Positions 1-61,149 of a stretch of DNA of 64,000 nt are shown here, one piece after another (the first letter of the stretch is position 1; the number at the start of each line of letters is the position of its first letter). The notes under the pieces were generated by a model, which saw only the letters and a program-made list of their open reading frames with translations, made no database searches and was not told where the DNA came from. The stretch lies in contig VMFW01000001.1 in the NCBI GenBank assembly GCA_007376265.1, forward strand, positions 2,455 to 66,454, written 5' to 3'. The stretch is from Parcubacteria group bacterium Gr01-1014_20. Its GTDB lineage: Bacteria; Patescibacteriota; Minisyncoccia; UBA6257; 2-01-FULL-56-20. The position numbers and the translations under genes were made by a program.

Positions 1-5
1 TGGCT

Positions 6-1724
6 TTGAAGTTGGGAGTTTTTATTTCGCTCTTCTCTTTGGTCATACCTAGAGTAACGCACGCTGGTTGGTTGTTCGATCTTGAGGATGCAGCCGCATG
101 GTTATTTGGTTGGATAATGTTCGTGGTGAGTTATTTAATATCGACTATTTTTGGCTTTTTTATCGCCATTCAGGCTTGGGCGATAGGGCTACTCCTCCAA
201 ATTCAATCGGCTCAAAAAATCGTAAACCTGCCGGTCGTGTCGATTGGTCACGAGATGATGCTCTCGCTTGCCAACCTAGGCTTTGTGGCGGCGATTATAT
301 TTATCGCTGTCGCCACCATCCTTAGGCTTCAGACCTACAACGTTAAGAAGACTTTATGGAAGTTAATTATTGCCGCGCTCCTTGTAAATTTCAGCCTGGT
401 TTTTACGGGCGCGATTATGAACTTGTCGGATCAGTTGAGTTTTACATTTTTACAGCAGTTCCCGGGACAATCCCCCGGATCAACGACTGGTTTTGCGAGC
501 GCCATCACAACGGCTTTTTCTCCGCAGAAGTACCTGAATCCTCAGGCTGACCCGGAAGCTAGGGCGGCAGCGGCGGCAAACCCCGCAGGGGTGACAGAAC
601 AATACGCTGGGGCGATATCACAAGTGGACGATGACCATCAGGAGGATATCGATGGAATTGGCCAGCTTCTAGCGCCGATTTTCTCGATGGTGATGACAGT
701 TTTAGGGTTGGGATCAATAGTGATGGTCTTGGGAGCTTTTCAAGTTTTACTGCTCATCAGATACATTGCTTTATCGATTCTTCTTGTGCTGATGCCAATG
801 GTGTGGCTTTTTTGGATCTTTCCGGGGCTTAGTGGGATGTGGACTTCCTGGTGGAAAAACTTTTTCCGGTGGACCTTTTTTGCGCCCATCGTTTTGTTTT
901 TTGTGTGGCTCGTAATTAAAACCGGGGAGGCGATGCAAGCTGGGTCTGCGGGAAGCCCGTTTAGCGGAGAAAACATGAACTTCTCGTCGAGTGATCCAAG
1001 CCCGTTGATAGCCTCTATCTCCAACTTCCTAGGCCAAACTTTCACACCGATTATCGGCACGACTCTGAATGGCTTCGTCTTAGTTGGATTGATGGTGGGG
1101 GGGCTTTTTGCGGCCAACAAGCTTTCGATCACGGGAGCGGGAGCGGCGGTGTCAGCTGTCAAGGGAGCTGGGAAGGGGGCGGCCAAGGGAGCGTGGGGAT
1201 ACACTAAGGGCAAGGCCACATCCACCCTCGGAAGACCGCCGGACCAGGACAAAGCTGGTTTTAAGGGATTGATGCAAAAAATGAATTTAGCCCAGGGCGT
1301 TCGCAAAAGAGTTCAGGATGCGGCCAAAATAGAGCAGAAGGTTGGTATTAAAGACGGCCCGGCCACAAAATTGGCGGCTAAAGGGAAGGAGGCAGCCGAG
1401 GAGTCAAAGAAGCGCGACGAGATGAAAAAGGAATATATTTCTAGGTATGGGGAAATTAAGGGGCGGGCGGCTTACGCGGTGGCTCCAGGGAAACCCAGCC
1501 CAACTCTGGTTCAATCTGTTTTCATTGAGGCCGCGAGGGGAAGCGGGCTTTTGGGAAAGAGCCAAAAGCTAACTAAGGAGCAAAAGAAGATGTTGGGGCT
1601 AGAGGAGAGAGAGGAGAAGGAGGAGAAACCAGAAGGAGAAAAGAAACCGGTTATCATCGCTGGAACCCAGGATGCTTACAACGAAGCAACGGGTGGGGGG
1701 CCGAAAATAATCCCTGGAGCTTAG
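6..1724 (+). CDS. VirB6/TrbL-like polytopic membrane protein with a Lys/Glu-rich C-terminal tail; possibly 5'-partial, since the frame is open to the window edge
   Basis: Possible signal peptide at the N-terminus, six or more hydrophobic helices and a long charged tail; lies in a cluster with a VirB4 ATPase. TTG start at 6. Confidence 0.45.
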   Translation: MKLGVFISLFSLVIPRVTHAGWLFDLEDAAAWLFGWIMFVVSYLISTIFGFFIAIQAWAIGLLLQIQSAQKIVNLPVVSIGHEMMLSLANLGFVAAIIFIAVATILRLQTYNVKKTLWKLIIAALLVNFSLVFTGAIMNLSDQLSFTFLQQFPGQSPGSTTGFASAITTAFSPQKYLNPQADPEARAAAAANPAGVTEQYAGAISQVDDDHQEDIDGIGQLLAPIFSMVMTVLGLGSIVMVLGAFQVLLLIRYIALSILLVLMPMVWLFWIFPGLSGMWTSWWKNFFRWTFFAPIVLFFVWLVIKTGEAMQAGSAGSPFSGENMNFSSSDPSPLIASISNFLGQTFTPIIGTTLNGFVLVGLMVGGLFAANKLSITGAGAAVSAVKGAGKGAAKGAWGYTKGKATSTLGRPPDQDKAGFKGLMQKMNLAQGVRKRVQDAAKIEQKVGIKDGPATKLAAKGKEAAEESKKRDEMKKEYISRYGEIKGRAAYAVAPGKPSPTLVQSVFIEAARGSGLLGKSQKLTKEQKKMLGLEEREEKEEKPEGEKKPVIIAGTQDAYNEATGGGPKIIPGA

Positions 1725-1734
1725 CGGTATCATC

Positions 1735-2757
1735 ATGAACTACTCATTATTTGAACCACAAATTTTAGTTGACCGTTTCGCGTCTTTGCCGGAGAACATC
1801 AAGAGTTCCTTGAATCACCCGAGCGACGCCGAGATTGTGGAACAAATTTGCCGGAATAATTTTTTGGAGGACGGCGACAAGATTTTAATGGTTCAACAGC
1901 TAACAACCTTGGTTTTGATGGGGTTTCTTTTGCCCGAGGAGCTAGGACGAGAAATTGCCAACAATCTTCACCTGAACCTAAAAGCAGGCCAAGCGATTGC
2001 CGAGGAGATTGATCGGAAAATTTTTACTTCGATTCATGCTGATCTAAAGAGAGTTTATTCGCCTCTCAAAGAAGCGGCGGCCGATGGTCCCGGACCAGTT
2101 ATCCTCGGGGTCACTTCGGCGGAGACGGGATCGGTCACAATGATTCCGGGGGGAATAGCGGCCGAGGCCGAGAAAAAATTAAAGGGAGCTTCGATTCAGG
2201 AAAAGATTGCGATTCTTCGAGAGGCCGCGACGGCAGGATTTGCAAGTCAGATTCCAAACATTGAGGAACACCTCAAGGAAAGCGAATTTAAGCTTTATGG
2301 AGAGCAAAAAACTTATCAGGACATCGCCGACCGAAGCGGACTAAGCCTAAAGACAATGGTGGCGGACAAAAAAACGACCGAGAGTCAAGCTGGGCCGGCG
2401 AGTGAAGTGGTTCAGAAAATTTCGGCCTACTTCAAACGCCTTCCCTCGCCCGGTGAGCTGGATTCTTTTTTTGGCGACTCATCTTTGACAAAACTCCTGC
2501 CCTTTGGACTAGACGCAACCGCACTCAAAGAAGTTCAGCTCGAGGTGGTGCGCGGAGTGACTTCGGGTTTTTCGCCGGAGGTGATGGCTAACTTTTTTGC
2601 TCAGCTTGTCAAAAGGGGGCGGCTTGAGAACTTTACTGCGGTGGCTCGCGGAGCAGGACTAAAGGAGTCCGACTTCGCGCCTGACAATTTACGATGGCTT
2701 ACAAACCAAGCGGCTGCGCCGCTTGGGATTGGTCGCCAAACTTTTGGTTTAGCTTAA
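1735..2757 (+). CDS. Hypothetical protein whose N-terminal ~100 aa are paralogous to the next ORF
   Basis: Shared motifs with ORF 2761: ...L(V/I)L(M/G)FL(L/R)PE(E/D)... and ...KIF(T/S)(S/P)(I/L)... then ...R(V/A)YxPL. Tightly packed in the same operon. Confidence 0.5.
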   Translation: MNYSLFEPQILVDRFASLPENIKSSLNHPSDAEIVEQICRNNFLEDGDKILMVQQLTTLVLMGFLLPEELGREIANNLHLNLKAGQAIAEEIDRKIFTSIHADLKRVYSPLKEAAADGPGPVILGVTSAETGSVTMIPGGIAAEAEKKLKGASIQEKIAILREAATAGFASQIPNIEEHLKESEFKLYGEQKTYQDIADRSGLSLKTMVADKKTTESQAGPASEVVQKISAYFKRLPSPGELDSFFGDSSLTKLLPFGLDATALKEVQLEVVRGVTSGFSPEVMANFFAQLVKRGRLENFTAVARGAGLKESDFAPDNLRWLTNQAAAPLGIGRQTFGLA

Positions 2758-2760
2758 CAA

Positions 2761-4146
2761 ATGACAATCACAAAAGAACAGGCTCAAACTCGATTTAAAA
2801 CCCTAACGCCTCTTTTGAAATCGGCACTTTTTTCGGTTCAAACCGCGGAGTCGATCGCAAGGGTGGCCGAACAAAACACCCTGCCAAAAGAAAAATCGAC
2901 CCAGATGGCGGAGGTGGCGGGGCTCGTAATACTAGGATTTCTACGACCGGAGGATGCGGCCCCAGAAATTCAATTGCGACTTGGTGTCCCCGCTCAATCG
3001 GCTAAGAGCATATCGGATTCACTGAGCAGTAAGATTTTTTCTCCTCTCAAGATTGAGATTGACCGAGCTTACCAACCGCTTGCCGGAGGCGACAAAAAAC
3101 CGACTTTTTCAACGGGTTCAACGTCAAAGCCAAGTATTGTGGAGGAGATAAAACAGCTTGAAAAATCTGGCGAAGAACTGGTGGGGGTTTTGAAAAGAAT
3201 GGAGAGTCCGGTTAAACCAGCTCAACCCCCGAGTTTTCCCGCAAGTTCGGGAATGGTGAAGACCCCGGCCGCACCCTTCATTCCGCCTCGGCCGTCAGCG
3301 GTCCCACTCCCTCCCTCTATTGAACTCAAAACAACTCCACCCCCACCCGTCCATGGACCAGTAATCCTCCACCGGGAATCGGAGGCTAACCCACTCGCAT
3401 CTGGCTTGGGTTTTAAGCTCGATATCCCCTCGGGAAAATTTTCGGATCGAGGCGTTACGCCCGAATCTACAGGGAAGATGGCGAGGTTAGAGGTTGGGGG
3501 AATGCAAAAATCGCCTGCCAATGCCACGGCTAGGACAGGCGTGGCGGGAGCGGGGAAAACCTTAAACTACGGCGGAAGTTTTGACCAAAATCCGAGACCA
3601 ACGGTGCCACCGCCACTCCCCATCAGGCCCACAGAGGAACCGTTTTCGAAGTCGGCTTTTGGGGGTTTGCCGCCCGTCATGCCTAAACCCTCTGTCTTGC
3701 CGCAAAGCCCTCAAGTGAACCTTCCGAACCCACCTCGACCCCAGCCACCTCGTCCCGAACAGGCGCCCCCCAACTTACCACCCCTGCCCGACAAAAAATA
3801 TCAAACTATGCCCAGGATAGAGAACAAACCCTCGCCCTTCGGCTGGATAAAATCTCTTTTTGGAAATAAGCAGCGACCCGTTCCTCCCGAAGTTAAGGTG
3901 GTGAACTTGAGCGCGGATAGTCGGCCAACCACCCCAAAAATAGAACTGCCCCAGCCCCAAAAACAAGGGCCGCCGCCAATACCCGCTTCTCCTCGTCCCC
4001 CGACCCCCCCCTTGCCCCCACCGCCAACCCCCGGCCCGAGGAGTAGCTCTCCGACAGTTGACATAAAACTTAAGGCGCCAGCTCCAACCCCGAACCAGAC
4101 CGAAGAAGTGATTGATTTGAGTTCGCTTACGAAGATAAGGAAGTAG
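2761..4146 (+). CDS. Hypothetical protein with a paralogous N-domain and a very proline-rich C-terminal ~250 aa (PPxP repeats)
   Basis: ATG start 4 nt after the previous stop. Long ORF whose proline codons create spurious antisense ORFs. Confidence 0.55.
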   Translation: MTITKEQAQTRFKTLTPLLKSALFSVQTAESIARVAEQNTLPKEKSTQMAEVAGLVILGFLRPEDAAPEIQLRLGVPAQSAKSISDSLSSKIFSPLKIEIDRAYQPLAGGDKKPTFSTGSTSKPSIVEEIKQLEKSGEELVGVLKRMESPVKPAQPPSFPASSGMVKTPAAPFIPPRPSAVPLPPSIELKTTPPPPVHGPVILHRESEANPLASGLGFKLDIPSGKFSDRGVTPESTGKMARLEVGGMQKSPANATARTGVAGAGKTLNYGGSFDQNPRPTVPPPLPIRPTEEPFSKSAFGGLPPVMPKPSVLPQSPQVNLPNPPRPQPPRPEQAPPNLPPLPDKKYQTMPRIENKPSPFGWIKSLFGNKQRPVPPEVKVVNLSADSRPTTPKIELPQPQKQGPPPIPASPRPPTPPLPPPPTPGPRSSSPTVDIKLKAPAPTPNQTEEVIDLSSLTKIRK

Positions 4147-4161
4147 TGGTATATTTTTTCT

Positions 4162-4671
4162 ATGCAGTTTCAGGTTCCTCAATTTATTGAAACGGAGGAT
4201 AAAATTGTTGGCCCGCTATCACTTCGGCAATTTATTTATATTGCGGTGGCGGGAGCGCTTTGCTTTATCTTGTTTTTCGCCCTTAAAACTTGGCTTTGGT
4301 TTATTTTTACAGTCTTGCTCGCGGCGATATCCTTTTCTTTAGCTTTTTTGAAGGTGAATGGACAACCCTTAGTAAGGGTGATTATGGCTGGAGCAAGATT
4401 TCTATGGAAGCCGCAAACTTTTGTTTGGCAGCCGGAACGGAAGACCCCTACGAGAGGGACTGACATGCAACCAGAAAAACCAGCTTTTTCGCTTCAAGAC
4501 ATCATGGCGGGGATGGCTCTTAGAAGCACGTGGCAGAAACTACAGACTGGCAGTCGGAAGTCACCAGCAGAAGAGGTGAAGCCGATTACTCAGAAAATAA
4601 AAGAAAGGTATCAAATTTTCGAGAAAATCACCGGCGAGCGCCAGGCAGCCAGGCGGGTAGATTACCGATAG
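4162..4671 (+). CDS. Small two-helix membrane protein, PrgI/VirB3-like candidate
   Basis: 169 aa with two adjacent TM helices near the N-terminus, positioned immediately upstream of VirB4 as in Gram-positive T4SS loci. Confidence 0.4.
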   Translation: MQFQVPQFIETEDKIVGPLSLRQFIYIAVAGALCFILFFALKTWLWFIFTVLLAAISFSLAFLKVNGQPLVRVIMAGARFLWKPQTFVWQPERKTPTRGTDMQPEKPAFSLQDIMAGMALRSTWQKLQTGSRKSPAEEVKPITQKIKERYQIFEKITGERQAARRVDYR

Positions 4672-4742
4672 CTGGGCATGGGTGAGTGTTTTTTTAAATA
4701 GAGAAACTTTGGGTTTCTCGATTTTGCTTTATAATAATTGGG

Positions 4743-5465
4743 ATGGCCTTAAACAAGCAATTATCAAATACGCAGGACCTGGTGGCGATTGAGGAGATTC
4801 ATGACAACACGGTTATCTTAAAAAGCGGGGCAATGCGACAAGTGCTTATGGTGGGCGGCATGAACACGGCTCTTAAATCGGAGGAGGAGCTGAATTTGAT
4901 TACGACGTCTTATCAGAATTTTCTGAACAGCCTCGATTTCTCGATTCAGATCATCGTTCACTCACGAAAGGTGAATATAGAAAAGTATCTTTCGGGCCTA
5001 GAGGAAAGGCGGCGGTTGGAACAGTCGGCTATTCTGCAAAGTCAGATTTCAGAGTACAAGGAGTTTATCGCTGGCTTTGTTCGAGAAAACGACATTATGG
5101 AGAAGACCTTTTTAGTGGTGGTGCCGTTTAGCCCGAGTGGCCTCGCCGGAGTAACGTCGGCTTCGGGAGTTGCGAAACTGTTTCCTTTCTTCGGTGCGAA
5201 AGGCGATGCGAAAGAGGTGAAGGTCAAAGAGGGGATGGAAAAGGAGGCGAGTTTCAAAGAGAGTTTGGGTCAGTTAAATCAAAGAGTTAACCAGATTGTC
5301 GAGGGCTTGCGAGCGATTGATCTAGACGCGGCAGTTCTAGGCGACGAGGAGCTGATTGAGCTTTTTTATAACTTCTACAATCCTGAAACAGTTGAGCGGG
5401 GAAACCTAAATGTCCCAGTCGAAAAAAACGAAGGCGTTGAAGGTGATGAGGTGGAGAACAAATAA
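4743..5465 (+). CDS. VirB4-family N-terminal domain encoded as a separate ORF
   Basis: Motif ...DNTVILKSGAMRQVLMVGGMNTALKSEEE... resembles the VirB4/TrbE N-terminus. TAA stop lies 2 nt before the ATG of the ATPase ORF, which is in a different frame. Confidence 0.6.
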   Translation: MALNKQLSNTQDLVAIEEIHDNTVILKSGAMRQVLMVGGMNTALKSEEELNLITTSYQNFLNSLDFSIQIIVHSRKVNIEKYLSGLEERRRLEQSAILQSQISEYKEFIAGFVRENDIMEKTFLVVVPFSPSGLAGVTSASGVAKLFPFFGAKGDAKEVKVKEGMEKEASFKESLGQLNQRVNQIVEGLRAIDLDAAVLGDEELIELFYNFYNPETVERGNLNVPVEKNEGVEGDEVENK

Positions 5466-5467
5466 TC

Positions 5468-7183
5468 ATGCCAGGAATCAATTTTAAAGAGACAAAAAAG
5501 ATAATCGCTCCAGCCGGAGTTCAGGTTGAGTCGAACTACCTGAAAATTGGAGATAAGTTTGTTAAAACTTTCTTTATATTTTCCTATCCGAGATATCTTT
5601 CGACAGGTTGGTTCGAGCCACTCATAAACTTGCCAAATATTTTTGATATTTCGATTTTTATTAACCCGGTAGACACCGGGATGGCACTCAAAAAACTCCG
5701 AAAGAAGGCTGCTCAAATCGAGTCGCAGATCAGCGACCAGCAGGAAAAGGGACTGGTGAGGGATCCCCTACTCGAGACGGCATTTCAGGATGTGGAGAGC
5801 TTAAGAGACGCTCTCCAACAAGCGCAAGAAAGGCTTTTTGAGATTGGGGTTTACGTTTCGATTTATGCCGACGATCTGGAGGCCTTGGCTAAACTTGAAA
5901 GTCGAATCGACTCTTTAATGGAAGCCAAACTTATATACATCAAGCCCGCGCTTTTCCAGCAGATTGAGGGGCTGTCTTCAATTTTGCCTCTCGCAAACGA
6001 TGAGGTGGATGTGACGACCCCGATGAACTCGGCGCCGATCTCTTCTTTTTTCCCGTTCGTTTCGGAGGACCTAAACTCCAGCCAGGGCATTATGTACGGC
6101 ATTAACCGTCATAACAACAACCTGATTATTTTTGATCGTTTCTCGCTCGAGAATGCAAATCAGGTGGTTTTTGCCAAATCTGGTTCTGGAAAATCCTATG
6201 CCACTAAGCTCGAGATAATTCGCTACTTGATGATGGGGGTGGATGTTCTCGTAATTGATCCGGAAAATGAATACAAAAAACTCTGTGAAGCGTTTGGGGG
6301 AAGTTTCTTCAATATATCTCTCTCGTCTCACGAACATATTAATCCTTTTGATGTGCCGGTTGTTCCAGAAGGAGAAACGCCAACGGATGTTCTCCGCTCT
6401 CACATAGTTAACCTAGCTGGGTTATTGAAGCTAATGCTTGGAAACATTAGCGTGGAGGAAGACGCGCTCTTGGATCGAGCAATCACTGAAACTTACGCCT
6501 CAAGAGAGATCGTGCCCGGAGAAGATTTCTCCGGAGCCCAACCACCGCTGCTTGAAGACTTGGAAACTGTGCTTCGGAACCTCGAAGGAGGGCGGGGAAT
6601 AGCCGAGCGGCTTTACAAATTTACGAAGGGAAGTTTCGCTGGGTTTGTGAATCAGCCCACCAATATTGATATTGGTAATCGCTTGATTGTTTTTTCTATC
6701 CGCGACCTTGAAGACGAACTTAGGCCGATTGCGATGTACATAATTCTTAACTTCATTTGGAATTTAACTCGGGCGCAACTTAAGAAGAGGTTGCTAATTA
6801 TAGATGAGGCTTGGTGGATGATGAAATATGAAGATAGCGCTACATTTCTTTTTGGGTTGGTGAAGCGGGCGAGAAAATATTACTTAGGGGTTTCCACGAT
6901 CACTCAAGACGTCGAGGATTTCTTAAGGTCCCCTTACGGGCGGCCAATTATTACTAACTCTTCCATTCAGCTACTACTCAAGCAGGCGCCGGCGACGATT
7001 GATATCGTGGCTAAGGCTTTTGGGCTTACTGAAGCCGAAAAAAATATGCTTCTTTCGGCGGAGGTGGGGACGGGGCTTTTCTTCGCGGGCCGGAAACACG
7101 TGGCTATCCAGATTATCGCTTCTTTCTTTGAAGACCAACTAGTGACAACCAACCCCCAGCAACTCCTAGAGGAAAAAGCTTGA
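5468..7183 (+). CDS. virB4: VirB4/TrbE/PrgJ-family conjugation-type ATPase (C-terminal ATPase portion)
   Basis: Walker A AKSGSGKSYATK, Walker B LLIIDEAWWMM, and a YPRYLSTGWFEPLINLPNIFDIS segment typical of Gram-positive VirB4. SD GAGGTGG lies upstream within the previous ORF. Confidence 0.85.
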   Translation: MPGINFKETKKIIAPAGVQVESNYLKIGDKFVKTFFIFSYPRYLSTGWFEPLINLPNIFDISIFINPVDTGMALKKLRKKAAQIESQISDQQEKGLVRDPLLETAFQDVESLRDALQQAQERLFEIGVYVSIYADDLEALAKLESRIDSLMEAKLIYIKPALFQQIEGLSSILPLANDEVDVTTPMNSAPISSFFPFVSEDLNSSQGIMYGINRHNNNLIIFDRFSLENANQVVFAKSGSGKSYATKLEIIRYLMMGVDVLVIDPENEYKKLCEAFGGSFFNISLSSHEHINPFDVPVVPEGETPTDVLRSHIVNLAGLLKLMLGNISVEEDALLDRAITETYASREIVPGEDFSGAQPPLLEDLETVLRNLEGGRGIAERLYKFTKGSFAGFVNQPTNIDIGNRLIVFSIRDLEDELRPIAMYIILNFIWNLTRAQLKKRLLIIDEAWWMMKYEDSATFLFGLVKRARKYYLGVSTITQDVEDFLRSPYGRPIITNSSIQLLLKQAPATIDIVAKAFGLTEAEKNMLLSAEVGTGLFFAGRKHVAIQIIASFFEDQLVTTNPQQLLEEKA

Positions 7184-7220
7184 GTGTGATCGGGAGCTTC
7201 AAGGTGGTAGAATAATATAT

Positions 7221-7784
7221 ATGGAAGACGAGCGTGATCATGAACCACTAATATCTCTGGTTGAGATTTTGATCATTGCCCCCTACATACTGGTAATCGA
7301 TATTATCGGAATACTTTTGGCGTTTTTGGCGTTGGATGATTTTTTCATTTTGGACATTTTGATGTTGCCGGTACTAGGATACCTCTGGTTTAAGGGGGTG
7401 CCGCTTACGAGATATGTTTCTTCGGCTATTGGGGAGGCGATACCGTGGATAGGAGATTTGCCGCTGTATTCGGTTGGTTTCATTTTAACGATTGTTGCGG
7501 ACAGAAACCCGAAGGTGGGGGCGGCCCTTGGAGCGGCCACGGGTTCAACGGCACTTGCCAAGGGGGCGGGAGGAGTCGCCAAGGGCGTGCAGGCGGAAAA
7601 AGGAGCGGTGGCTAAAGCTAAGGACTCGCTTCCAAAGAGGTCTCCGGCGACCCAACAGGCAACCGGACTGGAGGCCGATAGACCGCTTAGGGGACTAAAA
7701 GATACGATGGAGAAGGTTCCAGAATCAAATGTGGTTGATCTGCGCGGAGAGGAAGAGGACGATGAATACGGGATGGTGGCTTAG
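7221..7784 (+). CDS. Small membrane protein with a Gly/Ala/Lys-rich tail and acidic C-terminus
   Basis: Two or three TM helices. Its KGAGGVAKG-type motif resembles the one in the VirB6-like protein. Confidence 0.5.
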   Translation: MEDERDHEPLISLVEILIIAPYILVIDIIGILLAFLALDDFFILDILMLPVLGYLWFKGVPLTRYVSSAIGEAIPWIGDLPLYSVGFILTIVADRNPKVGAALGAATGSTALAKGAGGVAKGVQAEKGAVAKAKDSLPKRSPATQQATGLEADRPLRGLKDTMEKVPESNVVDLRGEEEDDEYGMVA

Positions 7785-7836
7785 GTTCTCGGTGGATCGC
7801 TGTTGATGAATATATGTGTGTTAGTTGTTATAATTG

Positions 7837-8520
7837 ATGGGAATGAATAAAAAAGGAGCTCTTTTTATAGTACTGTTTTTTTTCTTAGCAGCCTTCGCTT
7901 ACGTCGCTCGTGGCCAGACTTTTTCTCCTTCGGCAATTCTCACATGGCGGGCGGCGACTTTTTCACCGGCCAAATACCAAGGCAAAAACCTACCAACAGC
8001 CGGTGCTCAAATAAATTTGTCGGTCGAAGTGATTAATAAGGGGGTTTTGCTTAATTTAGCGAAGCAGAACATTCTGTGGTATTTGGGTGACGAACTGATC
8101 GCAAGTGGCGAGGGAGTGCGGGAGGCGATTTTTAGACCAACGAGAGACGGCCTTCAAGACGTGAGGGTGGAGGTTTGGTCACAATTCGGAAAGGTTTCGG
8201 CGGGAACAAAAATTCCGGTTGTGTGGCCGGAGGCAGTTGTCTCGGCGCCGTTTCCCGGGGGGAATTTTTCTAAGACAAACCTGACGGTTAGAGGATATCC
8301 GTATTTTTTTAATGTGGCTAATTTGGCTGATCTCAACTTTGTCTGGAAGGTAAATTCTAAAGAAGTCGGCGCGGCGGGTGACGTTGATGTCTTAAACCTA
8401 AACGTTGATCCGAAGGCGGCCCAGGGCTTTAGGTTGAATGTGGGTTTGAGTATCACAAAAAAGGCCGGGGACAAACAAGGATCGAGCAAGGAGGTGATTC
8501 TCACCTACAAAAAAATTTGA
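7837..8520 (+). CDS. Secreted protein with a signal peptide, function unknown
   Basis: N-terminus MGMNKKGALFIVLFFFLAAFAYVARG. An extended -10 element TGtTATAAT lies upstream at about 7815-7823. Confidence 0.5.
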   Translation: MGMNKKGALFIVLFFFLAAFAYVARGQTFSPSAILTWRAATFSPAKYQGKNLPTAGAQINLSVEVINKGVLLNLAKQNILWYLGDELIASGEGVREAIFRPTRDGLQDVRVEVWSQFGKVSAGTKIPVVWPEAVVSAPFPGGNFSKTNLTVRGYPYFFNVANLADLNFVWKVNSKEVGAAGDVDVLNLNVDPKAAQGFRLNVGLSITKKAGDKQGSSKEVILTYKKI

Positions 8521-9083
8521 TGGCGCGGCTAGTAGTTCATAAAACGATGGTTTTGATCTTTCTCTCCGTTGGTCTAGTGGTCTTAGGTTTGGGGTCAACC
8601 TTGGCGGCAGAGACAAACATCAGCGTGGGTATTCCGGGGCCTAACGATACGGTGGCCGAGGGGAGCGCCAACCCGGCTGGGGTGGTGGCGAATGCCTATC
8701 AGTTCGCGCTCATGATCGGGGGGTTAATGGCTTTTGTGATGATAGTTTACGGCGCCGTAAAATACACGGCGGCAGGCGGAAACAGTTCGGTTCAGAGCGA
8801 TGCCAAAGACCGGATCACGCAGGCGCTTTTGGGGTTAGCGCTTTTAGTTGGGGCGGCCATAATTCTTTCGACGATAAGCCCCCGCTTTAAATTAGAAAAT
8901 GGTGTTTTTACACTCCCGACGATTCCTTCTGGGCAGCAACTAGAAGAAGAAACGAACGCGCTTTTTAATCCTTTTCAAAATAACCCGCCGGGACAGTGTG
9001 GTCCGGTTGGTAGTCCCTGTACGTGCCCAGGCGGAACGAGTGGTAGTTGCGCCGCCGACGGAAGGTGTACGCCCTGTACATAA
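8520..9083 (+). CDS. VirB2/TrbC-like pilin candidate with a Cys-rich C-terminal extension
   Basis: Long signal peptide, then two hydrophobic helices (ANAYQFALMIGGLMAFVMIVYGAV and ALLGLALLVGAAIILSTI) separated by a charged loop. The tail has 6 Cys in CGPVGSPCTCPGGTSGSCAADGRCTPCT. Confidence 0.45.
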   Translation: MARLVVHKTMVLIFLSVGLVVLGLGSTLAAETNISVGIPGPNDTVAEGSANPAGVVANAYQFALMIGGLMAFVMIVYGAVKYTAAGGNSSVQSDAKDRITQALLGLALLVGAAIILSTISPRFKLENGVFTLPTIPSGQQLEEETNALFNPFQNNPPGQCGPVGSPCTCPGGTSGSCAADGRCTPCT

Positions 9084-9088
9084 ATAAT

Positions 9089-10309
9089 ATGAAAAAATAC
9101 ATATTTTTGTTGGTGGCAATAGCCGGAGTAGTACTTCTTTTTGTGGGGGGATATTTCTTGAGGCAGGGCTTAGACCGAAGTCCCGAGGCTCCGGGTGATA
9201 CTTCGGAGGGCGGAAGCTTGCCAGGAGCTGGAGACCAAAATCTCCCCCCAGGTGATCAAGGGGGGCAACCGGCTGGTCCTCTGACTAACCCTAAAGACTT
9301 GGTTCAGGTTTTGGCCGGACCGGTTTTGGATTATTTTGTTTCGTCTGGGGGGAACATAGTTTACATCCAACCAGACGGACAGATTTTTGAAAGTAAAGGC
9401 GGGCAGGCGGCAGTTTTGAGCGGCACTAAGATAGAAAACTTGGCTCGTGCCGGTTTTTCATATAACGGCGAGAAGTTATTGGTTGTTTTTGGTCAATTGG
9501 GGCAGCTTCAGGCAAGTGTGTTTGATTTGAAGACGAAGGCCTGGCAGCCACTCACCATTTCTCCGGAGACGGCTGCCTGGTCGCCGACTGACGAAAAGCT
9601 AGCGCTCCTTTCGAGGACAGCGGGGGTGGCGAGCGTTTCAACCCTTGATTTGGCTAACGCCAAATCGAAGCCGATTGAGCTTTTTAAGATCAGGGCTTGG
9701 GATGTCGATCTCGGGTGGCCAGTTAAGAACAAGCTGCTCCTTAAAGAAAGAACGGGTTCTCGATCTGGGGGTTCGGTCTGGATCTACGACTTGGATAGAA
9801 AGACGATTAGCTCACTTTTGGCTCACAAAACTGGACTGCGATCAACATGGAATAGCGCGCTTACACTAGGATTGGTTTTCGGAATCAATGAGGCAAGTGA
9901 GGGCTCACTATCACTCGTTGACGGAGCTGGTGTCACTACTCGGGGGTTGGGCTTCAAGACCAGACCAGACAAGTGCGCCTTTAGCGAAAGAACGGAAACG
10001 GTCACGAGCACGGTAGGAGCTACTGGAACTCCGGCGAAGAAAACGACAACAAGGATTGTTAACCTACTCACCTGCGGAGTACCCAGAAATTTTTCTTCGC
10101 TTACGGATCTGGGTTTTCTGGACGATTACGACAAAGAAGGCCTCTTCACAGTTGATAGTGTTTACCAGATAAACCTGGAGGGTGGCTCTTCACAGGCTCT
10201 TTTTGACGATCGATCGAAAAGTTTAGATGTGAGTCAGGTGAAAGTATTTTCCAAGAAGTTTTACTTCGTAGACAGATACAGCGGGGGTCTTTATTCGGTG
10301 GCGTTGTAG
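9089..10309 (+). CDS. Membrane-anchored or secreted protein, possibly a beta-propeller/TolB-like fold
   Basis: ATG at 9089 gives MKKYIFLLVAIAGVVLLFVGG as an N-terminal anchor. Last gene before a strong terminator. Confidence 0.45.
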   Translation: MKKYIFLLVAIAGVVLLFVGGYFLRQGLDRSPEAPGDTSEGGSLPGAGDQNLPPGDQGGQPAGPLTNPKDLVQVLAGPVLDYFVSSGGNIVYIQPDGQIFESKGGQAAVLSGTKIENLARAGFSYNGEKLLVVFGQLGQLQASVFDLKTKAWQPLTISPETAAWSPTDEKLALLSRTAGVASVSTLDLANAKSKPIELFKIRAWDVDLGWPVKNKLLLKERTGSRSGGSVWIYDLDRKTISSLLAHKTGLRSTWNSALTLGLVFGINEASEGSLSLVDGAGVTTRGLGFKTRPDKCAFSERTETVTSTVGATGTPAKKTTTRIVNLLTCGVPRNFSSLTDLGFLDDYDKEGLFTVDSVYQINLEGGSSQALFDDRSKSLDVSQVKVFSKKFYFVDRYSGGLYSVAL

Positions 10310-10317
10310 TTTTATTA

Positions 10318-10353
10318 AAATCCCCTTCGTCGTCTCGACGAAGGGGATTTTTG
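10318..10353. terminator. Bidirectional rho-independent terminator
   Basis: aaatccccttcgtcg tctc gacgaaggggattttt forms a perfect 13-bp stem flanked by T/A runs, between convergent genes. Confidence 0.65.
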
Positions 10354-12152: not shown

Positions 12153-13517
12153 ATGGATTTAAATCAACTTTGGCAGTTAGCTTTAGAAGAGATGCGGGTT
12201 CAGCTTTCTAGGGCTAGTTTTGCGACCTGGCTCAAAAGTAGCCGCTTAGTTGATAGGAAAGAGGGGGTTTTTTACATCAGCCTTCCAAATGACTTTACAA
12301 AGCAGTGGATAGAAGAAAAATATCAGAAAAATATACTGGGAATTATCAGAAACCTTGATAGCTCAGCGAGGAAGCTCGAGTTTATCGTGGCGGGACACGA
12401 GCCAAAGATCATATCCAAACGAGACTTAGAGATTGATCTTAATCGGTTTGACAATCAGATAGACTTGGACTTCAAGGTAGACCCAGAAACCAACCTTAAT
12501 CCTCGATACACACTGAAGTCTTTCATTGTGGGATCTTCGAATGAGCTCGCGTATGCGGCGGCCTCGGCCATTGCCCAAGAGGTGGGCAAAAAATACAATC
12601 CTTTCTTTATCTATGGAGGGGTGGGCTTAGGCAAGACTCATTTAATCCAGGCGCTCGGAAATGAGATTGTGGCTATTTATAAGGGCAAAGTTAGGCCGAA
12701 GTATGTTTCTTCTGAAAAATTCACCAGCGATGTGGTTTGGGCGATCCGGAACAAGCGGATGGAGGATATTAAGAAGAAGTACCGGGACGTGGACGTTTTA
12801 ATAATTGATGATATTCAGTTCATTGGAGGTAAAGAGAAGACAGAGGAGGAATTTTTCCACACCTTCAACGCCCTCTACGAGAACAACAAGCAGATAATCA
12901 TTTCTTCCGACCGGCCACCTCAATCCCTCCCCACCCTTCAGGAGAGGCTTCGATCTCGGTTTGAGGGGGGACTAACGGCGGATATTGGTTACCCGGAATA
13001 CGAAATGCGGGTGGCAATCATTAACAACCGCCTCCAGGCTGGCGGAAGACAATTAGATGAGAAGGTGATCGATCTCGTGGCCAACTCAATAAAGAGAAAC
13101 ATAAGGGAACTAGAGGGGGTTTTGAATAAGATTTTATTTTACCAGGACAGAAAGGGGGTTCCGATTAGTGAGAAGATGGCGATCGAGATAGTCGAGAAGT
13201 CTACCCAGAACTTCTCTAAGCGAATAAGTGACGAACACATACTAAAAACGGTTGCCTCATTTTATAACGTTCAACTTGCCGATTTAGTGGGTCGTTCCCG
13301 GAAGAAGGAGATGGTGGAACCGCGACAGGTGACGATGTATTTGCTTCGGGATATCCTCCGGATGTCCTATCCATACATTGGGGAGAAGTTGGGGCGAGAT
13401 CACACAACAGTGATACACTCTTTTGAGAAGATAAACCACGAGATAAATAAGAATTCTCCCTTTAACCAGAAGATATTATTAATAAAAGAGGCTTTGTATA
13501 ACGGAAATAAACAGTAA
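12153..13517 (+). CDS. dnaA: Chromosomal replication initiator DnaA
   Basis: AAA+ Walker A GGVGLGKTHL, box VII, and a C-terminal DNA-binding domain. Confidence 0.95.
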   Translation: MDLNQLWQLALEEMRVQLSRASFATWLKSSRLVDRKEGVFYISLPNDFTKQWIEEKYQKNILGIIRNLDSSARKLEFIVAGHEPKIISKRDLEIDLNRFDNQIDLDFKVDPETNLNPRYTLKSFIVGSSNELAYAAASAIAQEVGKKYNPFFIYGGVGLGKTHLIQALGNEIVAIYKGKVRPKYVSSEKFTSDVVWAIRNKRMEDIKKKYRDVDVLIIDDIQFIGGKEKTEEEFFHTFNALYENNKQIIISSDRPPQSLPTLQERLRSRFEGGLTADIGYPEYEMRVAIINNRLQAGGRQLDEKVIDLVANSIKRNIRELEGVLNKILFYQDRKGVPISEKMAIEIVEKSTQNFSKRISDEHILKTVASFYNVQLADLVGRSRKKEMVEPRQVTMYLLRDILRMSYPYIGEKLGRDHTTVIHSFEKINHEINKNSPFNQKILLIKEALYNGNKQ

Positions 13518-23100: not shown

Positions 23101-23718
23101 ATGGCTAGAACTGAAAAAAACGAAAAGAAGGTGCCTCTATCAAAGGTGTTGTATGAGCAGAAATACAAAATTGCTGTTTCGGGCGCGGCAGAGACCAGTC
23201 ACTGTCTTCCGGGGGCGAAAGAAAGAGCCGAAGAGATCGGACGACTGATTGCGAGAAGAGGGATGATTTTGATTACGGGGGCCACGACGGGGTTACCTTA
23301 TTGGGCGGCTAAGGGCGCCAAGGAAGAGGGCGGGGTGGTGATTGGTTTTTCGCCGGCGGCCTCGCGAATAGCTCATATCAATGTTTATCATTTACCGGTT
23401 GATTATCACGATGTTATCGTCTACACCGGGTTTGATTATTCTGGAAGGAACTTGATTTTGATTCGGGCGGCGGATGGAATAGTAACGGTTTGTGGCCGGA
23501 TGGGAACCCTGAATGAATTTACGATTGCGTTTGAGGATAAAAAACCTCAGGCGGTGTTTACGCCAAGTGGTGGCACCACCGATATGATTCAGGAGATAAT
23601 TAAGGTGGCGAAGCGGGGCCATGGGCAGGTGGTGTTTGAGAGCGACCCGAATCGCTTACTAGATCGACTAGTTGAGGTTATAAAGAAAGAACAAGGAGGG
23701 AAGGGGTCCTCGGGCTAA
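23101..23718 (+). CDS. LOG/TIGR00725-like Rossmann-fold protein
   Basis: ITGATTGLPYWAAKGAKEEGGVVIGFSP motif typical of the LOG/SLOG family. Confidence 0.55.
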   Translation: MARTEKNEKKVPLSKVLYEQKYKIAVSGAAETSHCLPGAKERAEEIGRLIARRGMILITGATTGLPYWAAKGAKEEGGVVIGFSPAASRIAHINVYHLPVDYHDVIVYTGFDYSGRNLILIRAADGIVTVCGRMGTLNEFTIAFEDKKPQAVFTPSGGTTDMIQEIIKVAKRGHGQVVFESDPNRLLDRLVEVIKKEQGGKGSSG

Positions 23719-32421: not shown

Positions 32422-33078
32422 CTATCCTTCCTTATTGAGGAATGCTTGGACGACCTCAGCTGGGGTTCGCTTATCGGTTCCGGCGATCTTGGCGATGGTG
32501 GTCAAGGCGCTTAAGTAGCGACCTGCCAGCTTATTCTGTGCCGGAGTTGCCTGACCAGTAGACTCATCCCTGCAAAAGTCGTAGTGTTTCTTCGCCCACG
32601 CATTGTAGTAGGCGACTGACTGAATGTCGTCCAGGATGTCCCACCAGTCCCAGTCCGATGGGTAGAGTTCGCGGAGGCCAAGTTCCTCAACCCATTTCTC
32701 TACTATTGGTTGATCTGCCTCCGGATAGGTGTACTGGTGTGGAGCAACCGTTGCTTTGAGAAAAAGCGAAAAGTCGTAAAGCTGGCATGCCTCCCCATCT
32801 GTCAGCGACGCACCCGTCTTCAATTTGGCTAAGAGAACCACGCAATCATGAATGGTCATCTTCCGGAGGTCGTAGACATATTCCGCTTGAGCTCCTTCTT
32901 TAGCCCAGAGATCCACCTCTTCCGGATCCCCTCCAAAGTCAGCGATGTTCCTTTTTATATGCTCTACGAACAAAGCGACTGAATCGAAGGCAGGGGTTAC
33001 GAATTGATCCACTGTGCTGTTAAAGGCGACATATAGTGTGCCTTTGTCCGTCAACAACCTTCTAACGCTTGTGCCCAA
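32422..33078 (-). CDS. Hypothetical protein (about 50% GC, slightly above local background)
   Basis: 218 aa ORF with a terminator-like hairpin downstream; no recognisable motifs. Confidence 0.45.
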   Translation of the reverse strand: MGTSVRRLLTDKGTLYVAFNSTVDQFVTPAFDSVALFVEHIKRNIADFGGDPEEVDLWAKEGAQAEYVYDLRKMTIHDCVVLLAKLKTGASLTDGEACQLYDFSLFLKATVAPHQYTYPEADQPIVEKWVEELGLRELYPSDWDWWDILDDIQSVAYYNAWAKKHYDFCRDESTGQATPAQNKLAGRYLSALTTIAKIAGTDKRTPAEVVQAFLNKEG

Positions 33079-33379
33079 TGTTATCGCCGTCCTTTCTTCG
33101 GAAAACGAAATTTTAAAGGCGTGAATTTACTGGGAGTGATAGTATCACCTTGCTCTACTGTTTGTCAATGGGGGGTTAGTTGTTGGAGGTTCAGATCGGA
33201 GCATAATAACCCAGAGCACAAGACCCCGCCCTTGGGTGGATTTTTGTTAGCGGTGTTTTGGTGGAGATAGGGGAATTTCACTGCCTACCTTGAAGGAAGC
33301 TCCGACGTGATAGTCGGAGCACTCGTTTTGCAAACAAAAAAATACCGTGATCAATCGGTATTTTTTGTGCAAAACTGAG

Positions 33380-33695
33380 TGGAGATGGGCGGAATTGAAC
33401 CGCCGTGTAAGGGTATTGCCGCTAAATCATCTACGAGTGTATTTCCGCCGAAGCGAAAAAGGTTTGATTCATTGTCTCGTTCCTAAACCAGAATCATCGT
33501 TTAGAAACCAGTCTTCGGTATAACACCGCGATTAGCCAGAGAAGACTACCCAGCTAGGCGATGCCGAGTTTAAGCGTAAGCTAGGCTCGGAGCTGCAACT
33601 TTGTTGTTGGCAGTTATAAATTTTTTTGTCGGATTAACGAGACGACGCTCGACTCGCAATTCAGAACTTTACCCCTATCGAAGCCATTCATCCCC
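33380..33695 (-). ncRNA. ssrA: tmRNA (SsrA)
   Basis: 5' end GGGGATGAATGGCTTCGATAGGGG; 3' tRNA-like end GGCGGTTCAATTCCGCC-CATCTCC-A pairs with the 5' end including a G3-U wobble. Internal tag ORF GCC AAC AAC AAA GTT GCA GCT CCG AGC CTA GCT TAC GCT TAA gives ANNKVAAPSLAYA. Terminator hairpin downstream at about 33330-33365. Confidence 0.8.
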
Positions 33696-34233: not shown

Positions 34234-35424
34234 TCAAATGTCCGAAACTCGTTCGCCGAAGCGGATTTTGTATTTTTTTGAAGTGTAAATTTTGGTGATG
34301 AGGTAGTTAACCAGCCAGGTGGCTGCAACGATGATTAGAAAATAAAAGGCGCCGAGGCTCGTGATTTTTGGGAGTTCATTTCTTGAGAGGTAGCCGATGA
34401 TGCCAGAGATAACCCCGAGGCTTGTGATGAGCTGCAAGGATTGGATGCCGCGAGCAGTACTTTGGTTTTTGATTTCCACGATGTTCTGGATAGCAGAGGC
34501 GAGATAGTCCCCCGTCATCTTCCAAAGTTCTTTAATATAGTCGAGGGTGTCGGAGAGAACTTCAAATTTGAATTGGAAGAGTTTGGTTAGGTGTTCTTCA
34601 ATTTCCATGCCTTTGGCGATCGAGGAGCGAGTGCGGACATAGGTTCCCATTTGGTTGATGCGATTGCCAATGAGACTGATGGTTTTTTGATAGCTGTCGA
34701 GCTTGCCTCTTAGAATTTCAACTTCGTCCCCTTTCACGCTTTTGCGTTCTTTGATGTTTGATATTTCTTCCCAAAGTGTGCGGTGGATGTTTAAGTACTT
34801 TTCGAGCTGGTCTTTGAACTCTCTGAAAAAAACCTGCATCTCTACGATGTCGGCCACTTTGGTTTCCAAACCGGGTTTCGAGACCACGAAGATGTACGAG
34901 GGGGTTTTGTAGACGACAATGTTTTCGGACGAAATTTTTTGATAGACGGCGCCAAAGGTTTTTGAGTCGATGGAGTATTGGTCTGGGTTTTTGCTGGTTG
35001 AATTGATGACGGTTGGGTGAACGGTCTTGATGTTGGCCAGAATCTTGGGAGTGGGGGCGCCGAGCGAAAAGATGTAAGAGACGGCTGGGCTAAAGTGGTT
35101 TTCGAAGTAATCTTTAAGAAATTCCTGGCCCTGCTTAAGGTTCTTAGAGCTGGTTTCAAGGACGTAGAGGCCGTCTTCGTAGTAGCGGATTTCGATGCCA
35201 TCTTTGGTCAAGGCTTTCAAGAATTCGAGGTAACCGGCTTCTCTTGTCACCGAGGTTAGATTTAGGCCCTGCCGATACTTCTCAAGTGTTTCTTTGGAAA
35301 GATCGAGGTGAGATTTGCCGCTTTCGAAAAGGTTGTAGATTTCACTTAGATGGAGGGTGGTTCGTTGATACCAGCCCCCTAGGGTAATTTTAAAATTTTG
35401 ATTGCTGGCTTCATTTTTGCGCAT
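34234..35424 (-). CDS. Hypothetical protein with two C-terminal TM helices (CorA-like topology but no GMN motif)
   Basis: 396 aa with a large soluble N-domain. Confidence 0.5.
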   Translation of the reverse strand: MRKNEASNQNFKITLGGWYQRTTLHLSEIYNLFESGKSHLDLSKETLEKYRQGLNLTSVTREAGYLEFLKALTKDGIEIRYYEDGLYVLETSSKNLKQGQEFLKDYFENHFSPAVSYIFSLGAPTPKILANIKTVHPTVINSTSKNPDQYSIDSKTFGAVYQKISSENIVVYKTPSYIFVVSKPGLETKVADIVEMQVFFREFKDQLEKYLNIHRTLWEEISNIKERKSVKGDEVEILRGKLDSYQKTISLIGNRINQMGTYVRTRSSIAKGMEIEEHLTKLFQFKFEVLSDTLDYIKELWKMTGDYLASAIQNIVEIKNQSTARGIQSLQLITSLGVISGIIGYLSRNELPKITSLGAFYFLIIVAATWLVNYLITKIYTSKKYKIRFGERVSDI

Positions 35425-37032: not shown

Positions 37033-37875
37033 TTAGTTTTGTTTTTTTTGGCCTCTTTTGTAGAGGCTAGCCATTTCACCTTTTTCGTAACAGGTTTTTA
37101 TGACGTTGCCCTTGAGGACAAAGACCCAGCCGTGGATCCAGAGATATTCGGCTTCTTCAAATCCATGGCGAATAATTTGTGTAACGTTGTTTTCGCGTTT
37201 CACCAGAGTGGCTCTCTTGAACATGTCGTGAAAAGCTAGGAGGTAGGAGCTTTGGCTGCCTGGGTTTTTGTACCTGTTTTTGATCGTTCTAGATCTTCTT
37301 GCGTCTTTGATGAACTCTTCGAGTGCGTGGGGGCTTACCAGGTAAACGGTTCCCCTCACAGTAATTTCGGCAACGTGGGTAGCTTCTGGGTTTTTGGTTT
37401 TGTCGACAACTTTGATTGATGAGTTTCCCCGAAGTAGTGGATCTTGGGGGCTAATAGGGGTTAATAGCCTCACGTCGTAGATGAAGCCTTTAGCAACCTC
37501 GTACTTTTGGAGTAGAGGCTCGGCGTCTTTGTGCGTGAAAACATAACCGACAGTATTTATGCCCGATCCTTCGAAGCGCCAGATTTTTCTTCCGCAGAGA
37601 TCGAGGATGCCTTCTTTGGCAGTGGCGCGCTTATCGCTAGTTGCCCCAACTCCCAAAAGAAGAAGGCAGGCGTCGACAAGAAGATCGATGTGGCCATATT
37701 TGATAAAGAGGCCGCCCTTGATTCGGATTAGTCGCTGACTTCTTTGTTTGGCGCCCTTTCCCTTTCGAGATCGGAACTCCTCGATGGCCTTCACGAGTAA
37801 GTCTGGAGTTATGGTGACCTCGATTTCTTCTTGGTATAAGAGATTGAGACTTGAGGCCGATTTCCCTACGAGCAA
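37033..37875 (-). CDS. Hypothetical protein
   Basis: 280 aa ORF with no recognisable motifs. Confidence 0.45.
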   Translation of the reverse strand: MLVGKSASSLNLLYQEEIEVTITPDLLVKAIEEFRSRKGKGAKQRSQRLIRIKGGLFIKYGHIDLLVDACLLLLGVGATSDKRATAKEGILDLCGRKIWRFEGSGINTVGYVFTHKDAEPLLQKYEVAKGFIYDVRLLTPISPQDPLLRGNSSIKVVDKTKNPEATHVAEITVRGTVYLVSPHALEEFIKDARRSRTIKNRYKNPGSQSSYLLAFHDMFKRATLVKRENNVTQIIRHGFEEAEYLWIHGWVFVLKGNVIKTCYEKGEMASLYKRGQKKQN

Positions 37876-61072: not shown

Positions 61073-61144
61073 CGGCCCGTAGCTCAGTGGCAGAGCAAGC
61101 GTCTTATAAGCGCTGGGTCGCAGGTTCGATCCCTGCCGGGCCGA
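61073..61144 (+). tRNA. tRNA-Ile(UAU), putative
   Basis: Hand fold: acceptor cggcccg/cgggccg, D-loop agtggcaga, anticodon loop ctTATaa, T-loop ttcgatc, discriminator A. Confidence 0.7.
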
Positions 61145-61149
61145 CAGAT

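Follow-up and report, generated by a model that had tools for sequence, protein, structure and literature searches.

A probable Patescibacteria-clade type IV secretion system at the chromosomal replication origin of a Paceibacteria genome

Introduction

VirB4 ATPases of type IV secretion systems (T4SSs) are encoded in 2,417 of 3,035 Patescibacteria genomes, where they form a monophyletic clade nested in the MPF-FATA group (Quinonero-Coronel et al. 2025, PMC12102498). According to the same study, the TrsD plus VirB4 pair is the commonest T4SS component in these bacteria, and TrsD is found near virB4 together with PrgI/VirB3, VirB6, and VirB2-like pilins (PF18895). Relaxases are almost absent, type IV coupling proteins (T4CPs) are rarely adjacent, VirB8 is hardly ever found, and the virB4 genes of Paceibacteria lie close to dnaA, dnaN, rnpA, ksgA, and rpmH (PMC12102498). 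A nonconjugative role has been proposed for these systems (PMC12102498, PMC10633639), and in Southlakia epibionticum, whose system lacks coupling and relaxase proteins, transposon sequencing revealed the pilin array and the other T4SS genes to be essential to epibiotic growth (Wang et al. 2023, PMC10633639). A FEMS review from 2025 treats them as a new branch of the T4SS superfamily (PMC12857230), and a 2026 preprint describes tubular structures at the parasite–host interface that may be T4SS pili (bioRxiv 10.64898/2026.06.21.733656). The Patescibacteria T4SS is a notable recent addition to the superfamily, being pilus-bearing and relaxase-less in a monoderm, and it is essential to the epibiotic lifestyle in the one species tested. 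Here we analyze a T4SS-like gene cluster that lies near one end of a 64,000-nucleotide stretch of DNA (hereafter called the window; contig VMFW01000001.1, positions 2,455 to 66,454 of the forward strand) from Parcubacteria group bacterium Gr01-1014_20. An original prediction, made from the sequence alone, had described this cluster as a minimal module composed mostly of unannotatable proteins and had proposed profile searches and synteny comparisons as checks.

We conclude, with a probability of about 0.88, that the cluster is a chromosomal, vertically inherited T4SS of Paceibacteria and a member of the "Patescibacteria clade", which descends from the MPF-FATA conjugation machinery of monoderms. 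The system was already described in papers published from 2023 to 2025, and this copy is an ordinary member of low novelty that introduces no new principle but serves as a clean Paceibacteria example. Comparison with 80 related loci yields a usable parts list, which includes conserved unannotated neighbors, a genuine split of VirB4, minimal variants with fused VirB4, and an uncurated family of helical domains that accompanies the core genes. What novelty is left resides in the conserved, uncharacterized accessory families, above all the helical N-domain proteins, and the listed parts are natural targets for complex structure prediction, cryo-electron tomography, and genetics once a co-culture of Paceibacteria and host becomes tractable.

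Results and discussion

Layout of the locus and identity of its core components

The VirB4 sequence was searched against one genome per GTDB species, and 80 related loci were kept from at least 593 VirB4 relatives. These best 80 relatives are 58 to 90% identical to the query and derive from uncultured metagenome-assembled genomes, about two-thirds of which bear the name of a Patescibacteria lineage such as Paceibacterota or Parcubacteria; none is named as another cultured phylum. Loci were compared by using tblastn and iterative hidden Markov model searches, with family counts limited to those loci that include enough flanking sequence, and the proteins of the module were searched with Pfam and NCBIfam profiles.

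As the original prediction had stated, the module comprises ten co-oriented, tightly packed genes in the window, where ten long open reading frames (ORFs) on the plus strand are separated by gaps of −37 to 71 nt when the longest-ORF starts are used. Two overlaps, at the starts of the genes for the pilin and for a protein of 420 amino acids (aa), amount to −1 and −19 nt once called gene starts are used. The first gene is truncated by the window edge, and its full upstream extent was read from an identical longer contig (L001; ENA k139_85422, 87 kb), where the gene's start is found 46 nt ahead of window base 1 and its product has 589 aa. Because two further co-oriented genes reside upstream on this contig, one for a secreted protein of 808 aa and one for a membrane-anchored protein of 402 aa, the whole module consists of 12 genes rather than the 10 visible in the window. 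The upstream boundary is ksgA, the gene for rRNA adenine dimethyltransferase. Downstream of the module, the minus strand carries jag, yidC, and rnpA, after which come dnaA and dnaN, and the module is located at the chromosomal replication origin. We assign the locus to the Patescibacteria-clade T4SSs because the cluster is placed between ksgA and jag-yidC-rnpA-dnaA-dnaN. It further resembles those systems in its MPF-FATA-like VirB4 with a separate TrsD gene just upstream, its PrgI/VirB3, its candidate VirB6-like protein, and its PF18895 pilin, as well as in the absence from the window of a recognizable relaxase, adjacent T4CP, or VirB8 and in having the dnaA, dnaN, rnpA, and ksgA neighbors reported for Paceibacteria.

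Profile searches identified four of the ten ORFs in the window (PrgI, the TrsD-like protein, VirB4, and the pilin), whereas the remaining six exhibit no significant match in Pfam or NCBIfam. The predicted PrgI/VirB3-like protein is borne out by PF12666 (E 3.1e-10, 40.9 bits against a cutoff of 27), and its gene lies directly upstream of the TrsD gene in 74 of the 80 related loci. Likewise, the candidate VirB2/TrbC-like pilin matches PF18895 (T4SS_pilin; E 3.1e-8, 34 bits, cutoff 26.6), with three hydrophobic segments that correspond to a signal peptide and two hydrophobic helices. The pilin family is present in 54 of 59 related loci, and its alignment reveals a conserved FVPLxPIPG motif followed by a variable, often Cys-rich tail; the C-terminal tail of the window protein carries six Cys residues.

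The polytopic 589 aa protein, which had been proposed to be VirB6/TrbL-like, produced no direct match in Pfam or NCBIfam. Nevertheless, this identity is plausible, if indirect, given its topology (eight hydrophobic segments followed by a charged, K/E-rich C-terminal tail) and its positional orthologs, 3 of 24 of which match TrbL or TrbL_4 in Pfam (E 1.9e-7 and 9e-7). The family occurs in 46 of 55 related loci, and a profile search of the PDB with it returned only low-complexity matches to the charged tail.

The two-gene VirB4 ATPase

The ATPase encoded by the module is a member of the VirB4 family according to the profile searches, and the Gram-positive-like (MPF-FATA or PrgJ-type) character that had been suggested for it is supported by a match of 386 bits to NF045971 (conju_CD1110; cutoff 325). 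This match spans profile positions 186 to 734, such that the protein represents the C-terminal two-thirds of a full VirB4. It also matches PF19044 (E 1e-29), and its sole solved relative is the C-terminal domain of the Thermoanaerobacter VirB4 (4ag5, E 5e-43). Both the Walker A (GSGKS) and Walker B (LLIIDEAW) motifs are intact in the translation. The TrsD-like protein encoded immediately upstream resembles solely the N-terminal part of VirB4 proteins in profile searches, with matches to TrsD/TraD (NF041427, E 5.6e-8), VirB4_plasma (E 2e-11), and the TraC-like family PF26593, and with a weak match to positions 1 to 116 of the CD1110 profile (E 0.017).

The TAA stop codon of the TrsD gene is located 2 nt before the ATG of VirB4, and the two genes are in different frames. 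A Shine-Dalgarno-like motif (GAGGTGGAG) ends 11 nt upstream of the VirB4 ATG. Among 76 related loci, TrsD and VirB4 are separate ORFs in 70, with all three relative frames represented, and are fused into a single ORF of 768 to 794 aa in the other six. Because the two genes are separate in so many loci and in every relative frame, the two-gene VirB4 is a conserved arrangement, and a frameshift, a sequencing error, or a pseudogene is ruled out as the origin of the split. Thus, the original observation of two ORFs stands, but judging from the gene structures of the related loci, the "split" is better worded as a conserved TrsD plus VirB4 gene pair.

Median identities in the related loci are 61% for VirB4, 44% for DnaA, 35% for YidC, and 32.5% for DnaN, where the VirB4 values refer to window positions 5468 to 7183 and were compared with those for DnaA at 12153 to 13517 across loci L003 to L082. 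Because VirB4 is more conserved than DnaA, DnaN, and YidC from the same loci, strong purifying selection appears to act on this protein.

Gene order and minimal variants

The synteny comparison of the 80 related loci revealed a gene order that is conserved in dozens of species-level genomes. In the upstream half, the order is ksgA, the 808 aa protein, the VirB6-like protein, the N-domain protein (see below), PrgI, TrsD, and VirB4. In the downstream half, VirB4 is followed by the 187 aa protein, the 228 aa protein, the pilin, the 420 aa protein, jag/yidC/rnpA, dnaA, and dnaN. Paceibacteria loci that are more distant encode a UvrD helicase ahead of ksgA (upstream genes of L086 and L084), and in L086 and L087 a gene encoding LysM and Peptidase_M23 domains, possibly a cell-wall hydrolase near the T4SS, lies just past the UvrD gene on the opposite strand (L086 1-76, minus strand). 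A counterpart of this gene was not found in the window.

These data bear on an alternative origin for the locus, in which it would be the degenerate remnant of a Gram-positive-type integrative and conjugative element (ICE) that lacks relaxase, coupling protein, and hydrolase, and in which a frameshift would have left the split VirB4 as a pseudogene. This scenario could explain why conjugation-specific genes are missing, why VirB4 occupies two ORFs in different frames, and why the top NCBIfam model is an ICE-type CD1110 VirB4. However, the same genes occur in the same order at the same site in dozens of species, the frame relationship between TrsD and VirB4 varies among the 70 loci with separate genes, and VirB4 has its own start codon and Shine-Dalgarno-like motif, intact Walker motifs, and greater conservation than DnaA. 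In addition, we found no integrase in the window and no tRNA gene flanking the locus, and the GC content of the module (0.46 to 0.53, compared with 0.41 to 0.50 elsewhere) is not distinctive. The synteny and split-conservation data effectively refute the ICE remnant, which we reject as extremely improbable. The combined pattern of synteny and conservation does not fit a decaying mobile element but does fit a vertically inherited machine that is under strong selection and has fast-evolving surface parts.

Four related species (L031, L034, L037, and L016) carry minimal loci of five to six genes in the order VirB6-like protein, N-domain protein, PrgI, fused VirB4, the 187 aa protein in some cases, and pilin. 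This minimal set occupies the entire ksgA-to-jag interval in the three loci that include the full upstream flank, whereas L016 is cut upstream of PrgI. The minimal loci do not include the genes for the 808 aa, 228 aa, and 420 aa proteins. Because these variants retain one set of genes and drop the other, their gene content suggests a core in which VirB6, VirB3, and VirB4 are joined by the pilin and the N-domain protein, and the 808, 228, and 420 aa proteins would form an optional extracellular layer.

Comparison with described systems

The S. epibionticum system (SEML1_0006-0019) differs from the present locus by having a six-gene pilin array rather than a single pilin gene and by having peptidase or lysozyme genes downstream of virB4, which are not present here. 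The monoderm conjugative MPF-FATA systems (pCF10 Prg/Pcf, pIP501 Tra, pGO1/pSK41 Trs, and Tn916/CTn2) share with the present locus a CD1110-type VirB4, a PrgI-type VirB3, a polytopic protein (here a TrbL/VirB6-type candidate), and the lack of a VirB7/9/10 outer-membrane core, and pGO1 also has the TrsD plus VirB4 gene pair (TrsD/TrsE). In contrast to those systems, which are carried by plasmids or ICEs, the module described here is chromosomal and vertically inherited, it encodes a VirB2-like pilin that they lack, and neither a relaxase or T4CP nor a VirB1-type hydrolase, a VirB8-like protein, or a PrgB-type adhesin is recognizable in it. Archaeal Ced and Helicobacter ComB resemble it in employing a VirB4-family ATPase that works with neither relaxase nor conjugative coupling protein and in having a proposed role in macromolecule uptake. 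They differ in that similarity to CedB and CedD is limited here to sub-threshold matches of the P-loop region and that no CedA-type or ComB-type partners are present.

Accessory proteins

The Paceibacteria-specific accessories of this locus are the 808 aa protein, two N-domain proteins, the 187 aa protein, the immunoglobulin (Ig)-like 228 aa protein, and the propeller-like 420 aa protein; neighboring genes of this kind were left unnamed in previous reports (PMC12102498, PMC10633639). The original prediction held most partners to be novel; they are better described as uncharacterized yet conserved. Judged by their recurrence in related loci, they represent families that are conserved in position.

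An all-helical N-terminal domain of about 107 residues is common to the proteins of 340 and 461 aa (window positions 1735 to 2082 and 2761 to 3099), as revealed by BLASTP (30% identity over 98 aa, E 8e-12) and by hhalign (probability 99.8%), and they are the only hidden paralogs detected by hhalign across all families of the module. The domain has no Pfam model, although an exhaustive representative search recovered 7,973 cluster representatives at E ≤ 1e-3. This exhaustive search was needed because a word-indexed search with the same alignment returned eight matches, probably having been swamped by proline-rich words. An N-domain protein is encoded in 44 of 55 related loci, and the family produced no matches in a profile search of the PDB. 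Some members of the family contain two or three copies of the domain, and their tails can include short repeated "FG" motifs (GRQTFGL, SLFG) or a terminal "DPYRE".

In the 187 aa protein, a hydrophobic core of some 100 aa, in which the family alignment shows two invariant prolines ("E-x-I-P ... P"), is accompanied by a charged, variable tail. Its family is encoded immediately downstream of virB4 in 37 of 59 related loci. We considered whether it might be a second pilin or VirB3, but hhalign shows no relation to the pilin or PrgI families.

Among 25 orthologs of the 228 aa protein, 10 match BiPBP_C and 3 match a Cadherin-like β-sandwich; members of this family were recovered from 52 of 59 related loci. 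The 420 aa family is equally widespread (52 of 59) and has an invariant Cys pair and a conserved C-terminal motif. Weak TolB-propeller matches of the window protein, together with weak WD40/eIF2A propeller matches of a few orthologs, indicate that it is probably a β-propeller. The 808 aa protein, whose family is found in 40 of 55 related loci, has a strongly conserved Cys-containing core without a family match. Its AlphaFold2 model is poor (mean predicted local distance difference test score of 59), and the sole confident part is a C-terminal PKD domain (4xed, E 3.6e-6). The 402 aa protein is lineage-specific, occurring in two loci.

We tentatively propose that the conserved unannotated partners constitute a Paceibacteria-specific set of T4SS subunits, in which the N-domain protein might be a so far unrecognized part of the cytoplasmic core, perhaps in place of the missing coupling protein or substrate adaptor, and the surface proteins might stand in for VirB8, VirB1, and the adhesin and govern contact with the host. 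We hold this proposal at well below even odds.

The accessory proteins have median identities of 26 to 33% in the related loci, compared with 61% for VirB4. Such fast evolution is expected of host-contact surfaces, and it might be read to mean that the locus encodes chiefly a pilus or adhesion organelle, wherein the cell is held to its host by a VirB4-driven, VirB2-like pilus together with the Ig-like and propeller-like proteins of the surface, without translocation of any substrate. The frequent presence of the pilin gene with conserved genes for these surface proteins beside it agrees with this possibility. The minimal variants, however, retain the VirB6-like protein, PrgI, VirB4, and the pilin and have dropped the Ig-like and propeller proteins, and to our knowledge VirB6 and VirB3 are components of the translocon in all T4SSs that have been studied. 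Moreover, adhesion in S. epibionticum is predicted to be the task of type IV pili, with delivery of DNA or protein assigned to the T4SS (PMC10633639). We therefore consider a purely adhesive organelle to be rather unlikely.

Absence of conjugation genes and the direction of transport

We detected no family match to VirD4/T4CP, relaxase, VirB1, or VirB8 in the module with Pfam or NCBIfam profiles, and no recognizable T4CP, relaxase, integrase, VirB1, or VirB8 among 30 other window ORFs scanned with Pfam, including all of at least 190 aa. Note that these negative findings cover the 64 kb window rather than the rest of the genome. The module proteins and their ortholog sets also yielded no match to SLT, CHAP, NlpC, or VirB8/TcpC. 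A very divergent VirB1 or VirB8 analog could nevertheless be encoded in the module, conceivably, in the case of VirB1, by the gene for the poorly modeled 808 aa protein. These results agree with the absences listed in the original prediction. Because no relaxase or adjacent coupling protein is present, the system is probably not used for conjugation, in accordance with the nonconjugative role that had been predicted for this module and proposed for its relatives (PMC12102498, PMC10633639).

One possibility is that the system is a dedicated import machine, similar to Ced or ComB, that draws host DNA, RNA, or other macromolecules into a nucleotide-auxotrophic epibiont. Import has been explicitly proposed for Patescibacteria (PMC12102498), and a cultivated relative feeds on host RNA in a phylum whose VirB4 is monophyletic (bioRxiv 10.64898/2026.06.21.733656). 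The missing relaxase and T4CP are consistent with this function, as are weak matches of the VirB4 P-loop region to CedB (E 3.9e-8) and CedD (E 2.6e-5). However, the corresponding scores are far below the cutoffs (32 versus 700 bits for CedB and 23 versus 600 bits for CedD) and reflect a common ATPase fold, searches of the module gave no family match to CedA, CedA1, CedA2, or ComB-specific subunits, and no experiment ties candidate phyla radiation (CPR) T4SSs to uptake. Import is thus a possibility to which we give considerably less than an even chance, and it is a sub-hypothesis on the direction of transport within the Patescibacteria-clade assignment rather than a different identity for the locus.

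Proposed working model

The best-supported interpretation of the locus is a nonconjugative, pilus-bearing T4SS that serves a host-dependent lifestyle. The analysis establishes the identities of the genes, the conserved VirB4 split and synteny, the origin-proximal chromosomal location, and the lack of conjugation genes in the window; we infer how the subunits might be placed, that a pilus might be formed, and what might be transported and in which direction. The VirB6-like polytopic protein and PrgI/VirB3 would form a translocon in the cytoplasmic membrane, on which the two-polypeptide VirB4 motor (the TrsD N-domain and the ATPase) would dock. This motor would power the assembly of VirB2-like pilin into a pilus, the passage of a substrate, or both, with the extruded pilin making a filament or conduit. 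At the cytoplasmic face, the helical-domain proteins of 340 and 461 aa may act, and the 808 aa protein, the Ig-like 228 aa protein, the propeller-like 420 aa protein, and the 187 aa protein may make up or adorn the wall-spanning and surface part that contacts the host cell. In this way the machine could serve host contact, the export of effectors, or the import of host macromolecules.

Several points weigh against the assignment to the Patescibacteria clade and against this model. Membership of VirB4 in the clade was judged by its nearest neighbors and best NCBIfam model rather than by phylogeny, and VirB6 was assigned indirectly. Other parts of the genome could encode a T4CP or relaxase, and VirD4-like matches are located far from virB4 in most CPR genomes (PMC12102498). 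Essentiality is known solely from one Saccharimonadia species, and there is no experimental support for a Paceibacteria T4SS. The roles suggested for the accessory proteins were assigned by topology, fold class, and gene position only, the AlphaFold2 folds of the helical N-domain and the 808 aa core being uninformative.

Table 1. Coordinates of features in the window and in related loci
Feature	Position	Strand	Evidence or comment
VirB6/TrbL-like polytopic membrane protein (candidate), truncated	1..1724 (full: L001 4488-6257)	+	Topology, orthologs
340 aa soluble protein, helical N-terminal domain and lineage-specific helical C-terminal part	1735..2757	+
461 aa paralog, same N-terminal domain and low-complexity proline-rich tail (18.7% Pro)	2761..4146	+
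PrgI/VirB3-like small membrane protein	4162..4671	+	PF12666
TrsD-like protein, VirB4 N-terminal domain as its own gene	4743..5465	+	Profile matches
VirB4 ATPase, MPF-FATA/CD1110 type	5468..7183	+	NF045971, PF19044
187 aa small membrane protein	7221..7784	+	No Pfam/NCBIfam family match
228 aa secreted or anchored protein, predicted Ig-like β-sandwich domains	7834..8520	+	N-terminal hydrophobic segment, weak PKD match
VirB2-like T4SS pilin	8517..9083	+	PF18895
420 aa membrane-anchored extracellular protein	9047..10309	+	One N-terminal transmembrane segment
Terminator hairpin, bidirectional, strong	10317..10351		16 bp stem; marks the module's end, lying between its last T4SS gene and convergent jag
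Minimal five- to six-gene loci	L031 4838-12453; L034 5066-12484; L037 5107-13443; L016 230-3915
LDcluster4 (SLOG cluster4) protein	23101-23718	+	E 7.8e-35
tmRNA gene	33379-33695	−
Separate His_Phos_1 protein	38014-38784
ExbD/TolR-family protein	42276-42848	+	E 4.2e-22
IleRS with inserted His_Phos_1 domain	42997-46563	+	1188 aa; insertion E 2.8e-35
tRNA-Ile (UAU anticodon)	61073-61145	+

Other features of the window

The other 30 window ORFs that were scanned are housekeeping genes or have no Pfam match. Those identified include PBP1, RuvA/C, YebC, a Mur ligase, β-CASP RNases, ClpB, ArgRS, IleRS, TrpRS, RNase J, a sigma-70 factor, NusA, H+-PPase, ClpP, TyrRS, and FtsH. ORFs of 200 to 400 aa without a Pfam match are located at 32422-33078, 34234-35424, 37033-37875, 38839-39837, 47138-47923, 48823-49623, and 52874-53698.

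A complete His_Phos_1 domain is inserted in IleRS (residues 508 to 668), where it splits the class I catalytic domain into two halves, and a separate His_Phos_1 protein is encoded in the window. The window also carries a gene for an LDcluster4 protein and one for an ExbD/TolR-family protein, the latter in a lineage that is thought to lack an outer membrane. The tmRNA gene specifies the tag ANNKVAAPSLAYA. Finally, the window includes a tRNA-Ile with a UAU anticodon, which is uncommon in bacteria, where AUA codons are usually read by a lysidine-modified CAU tRNA.

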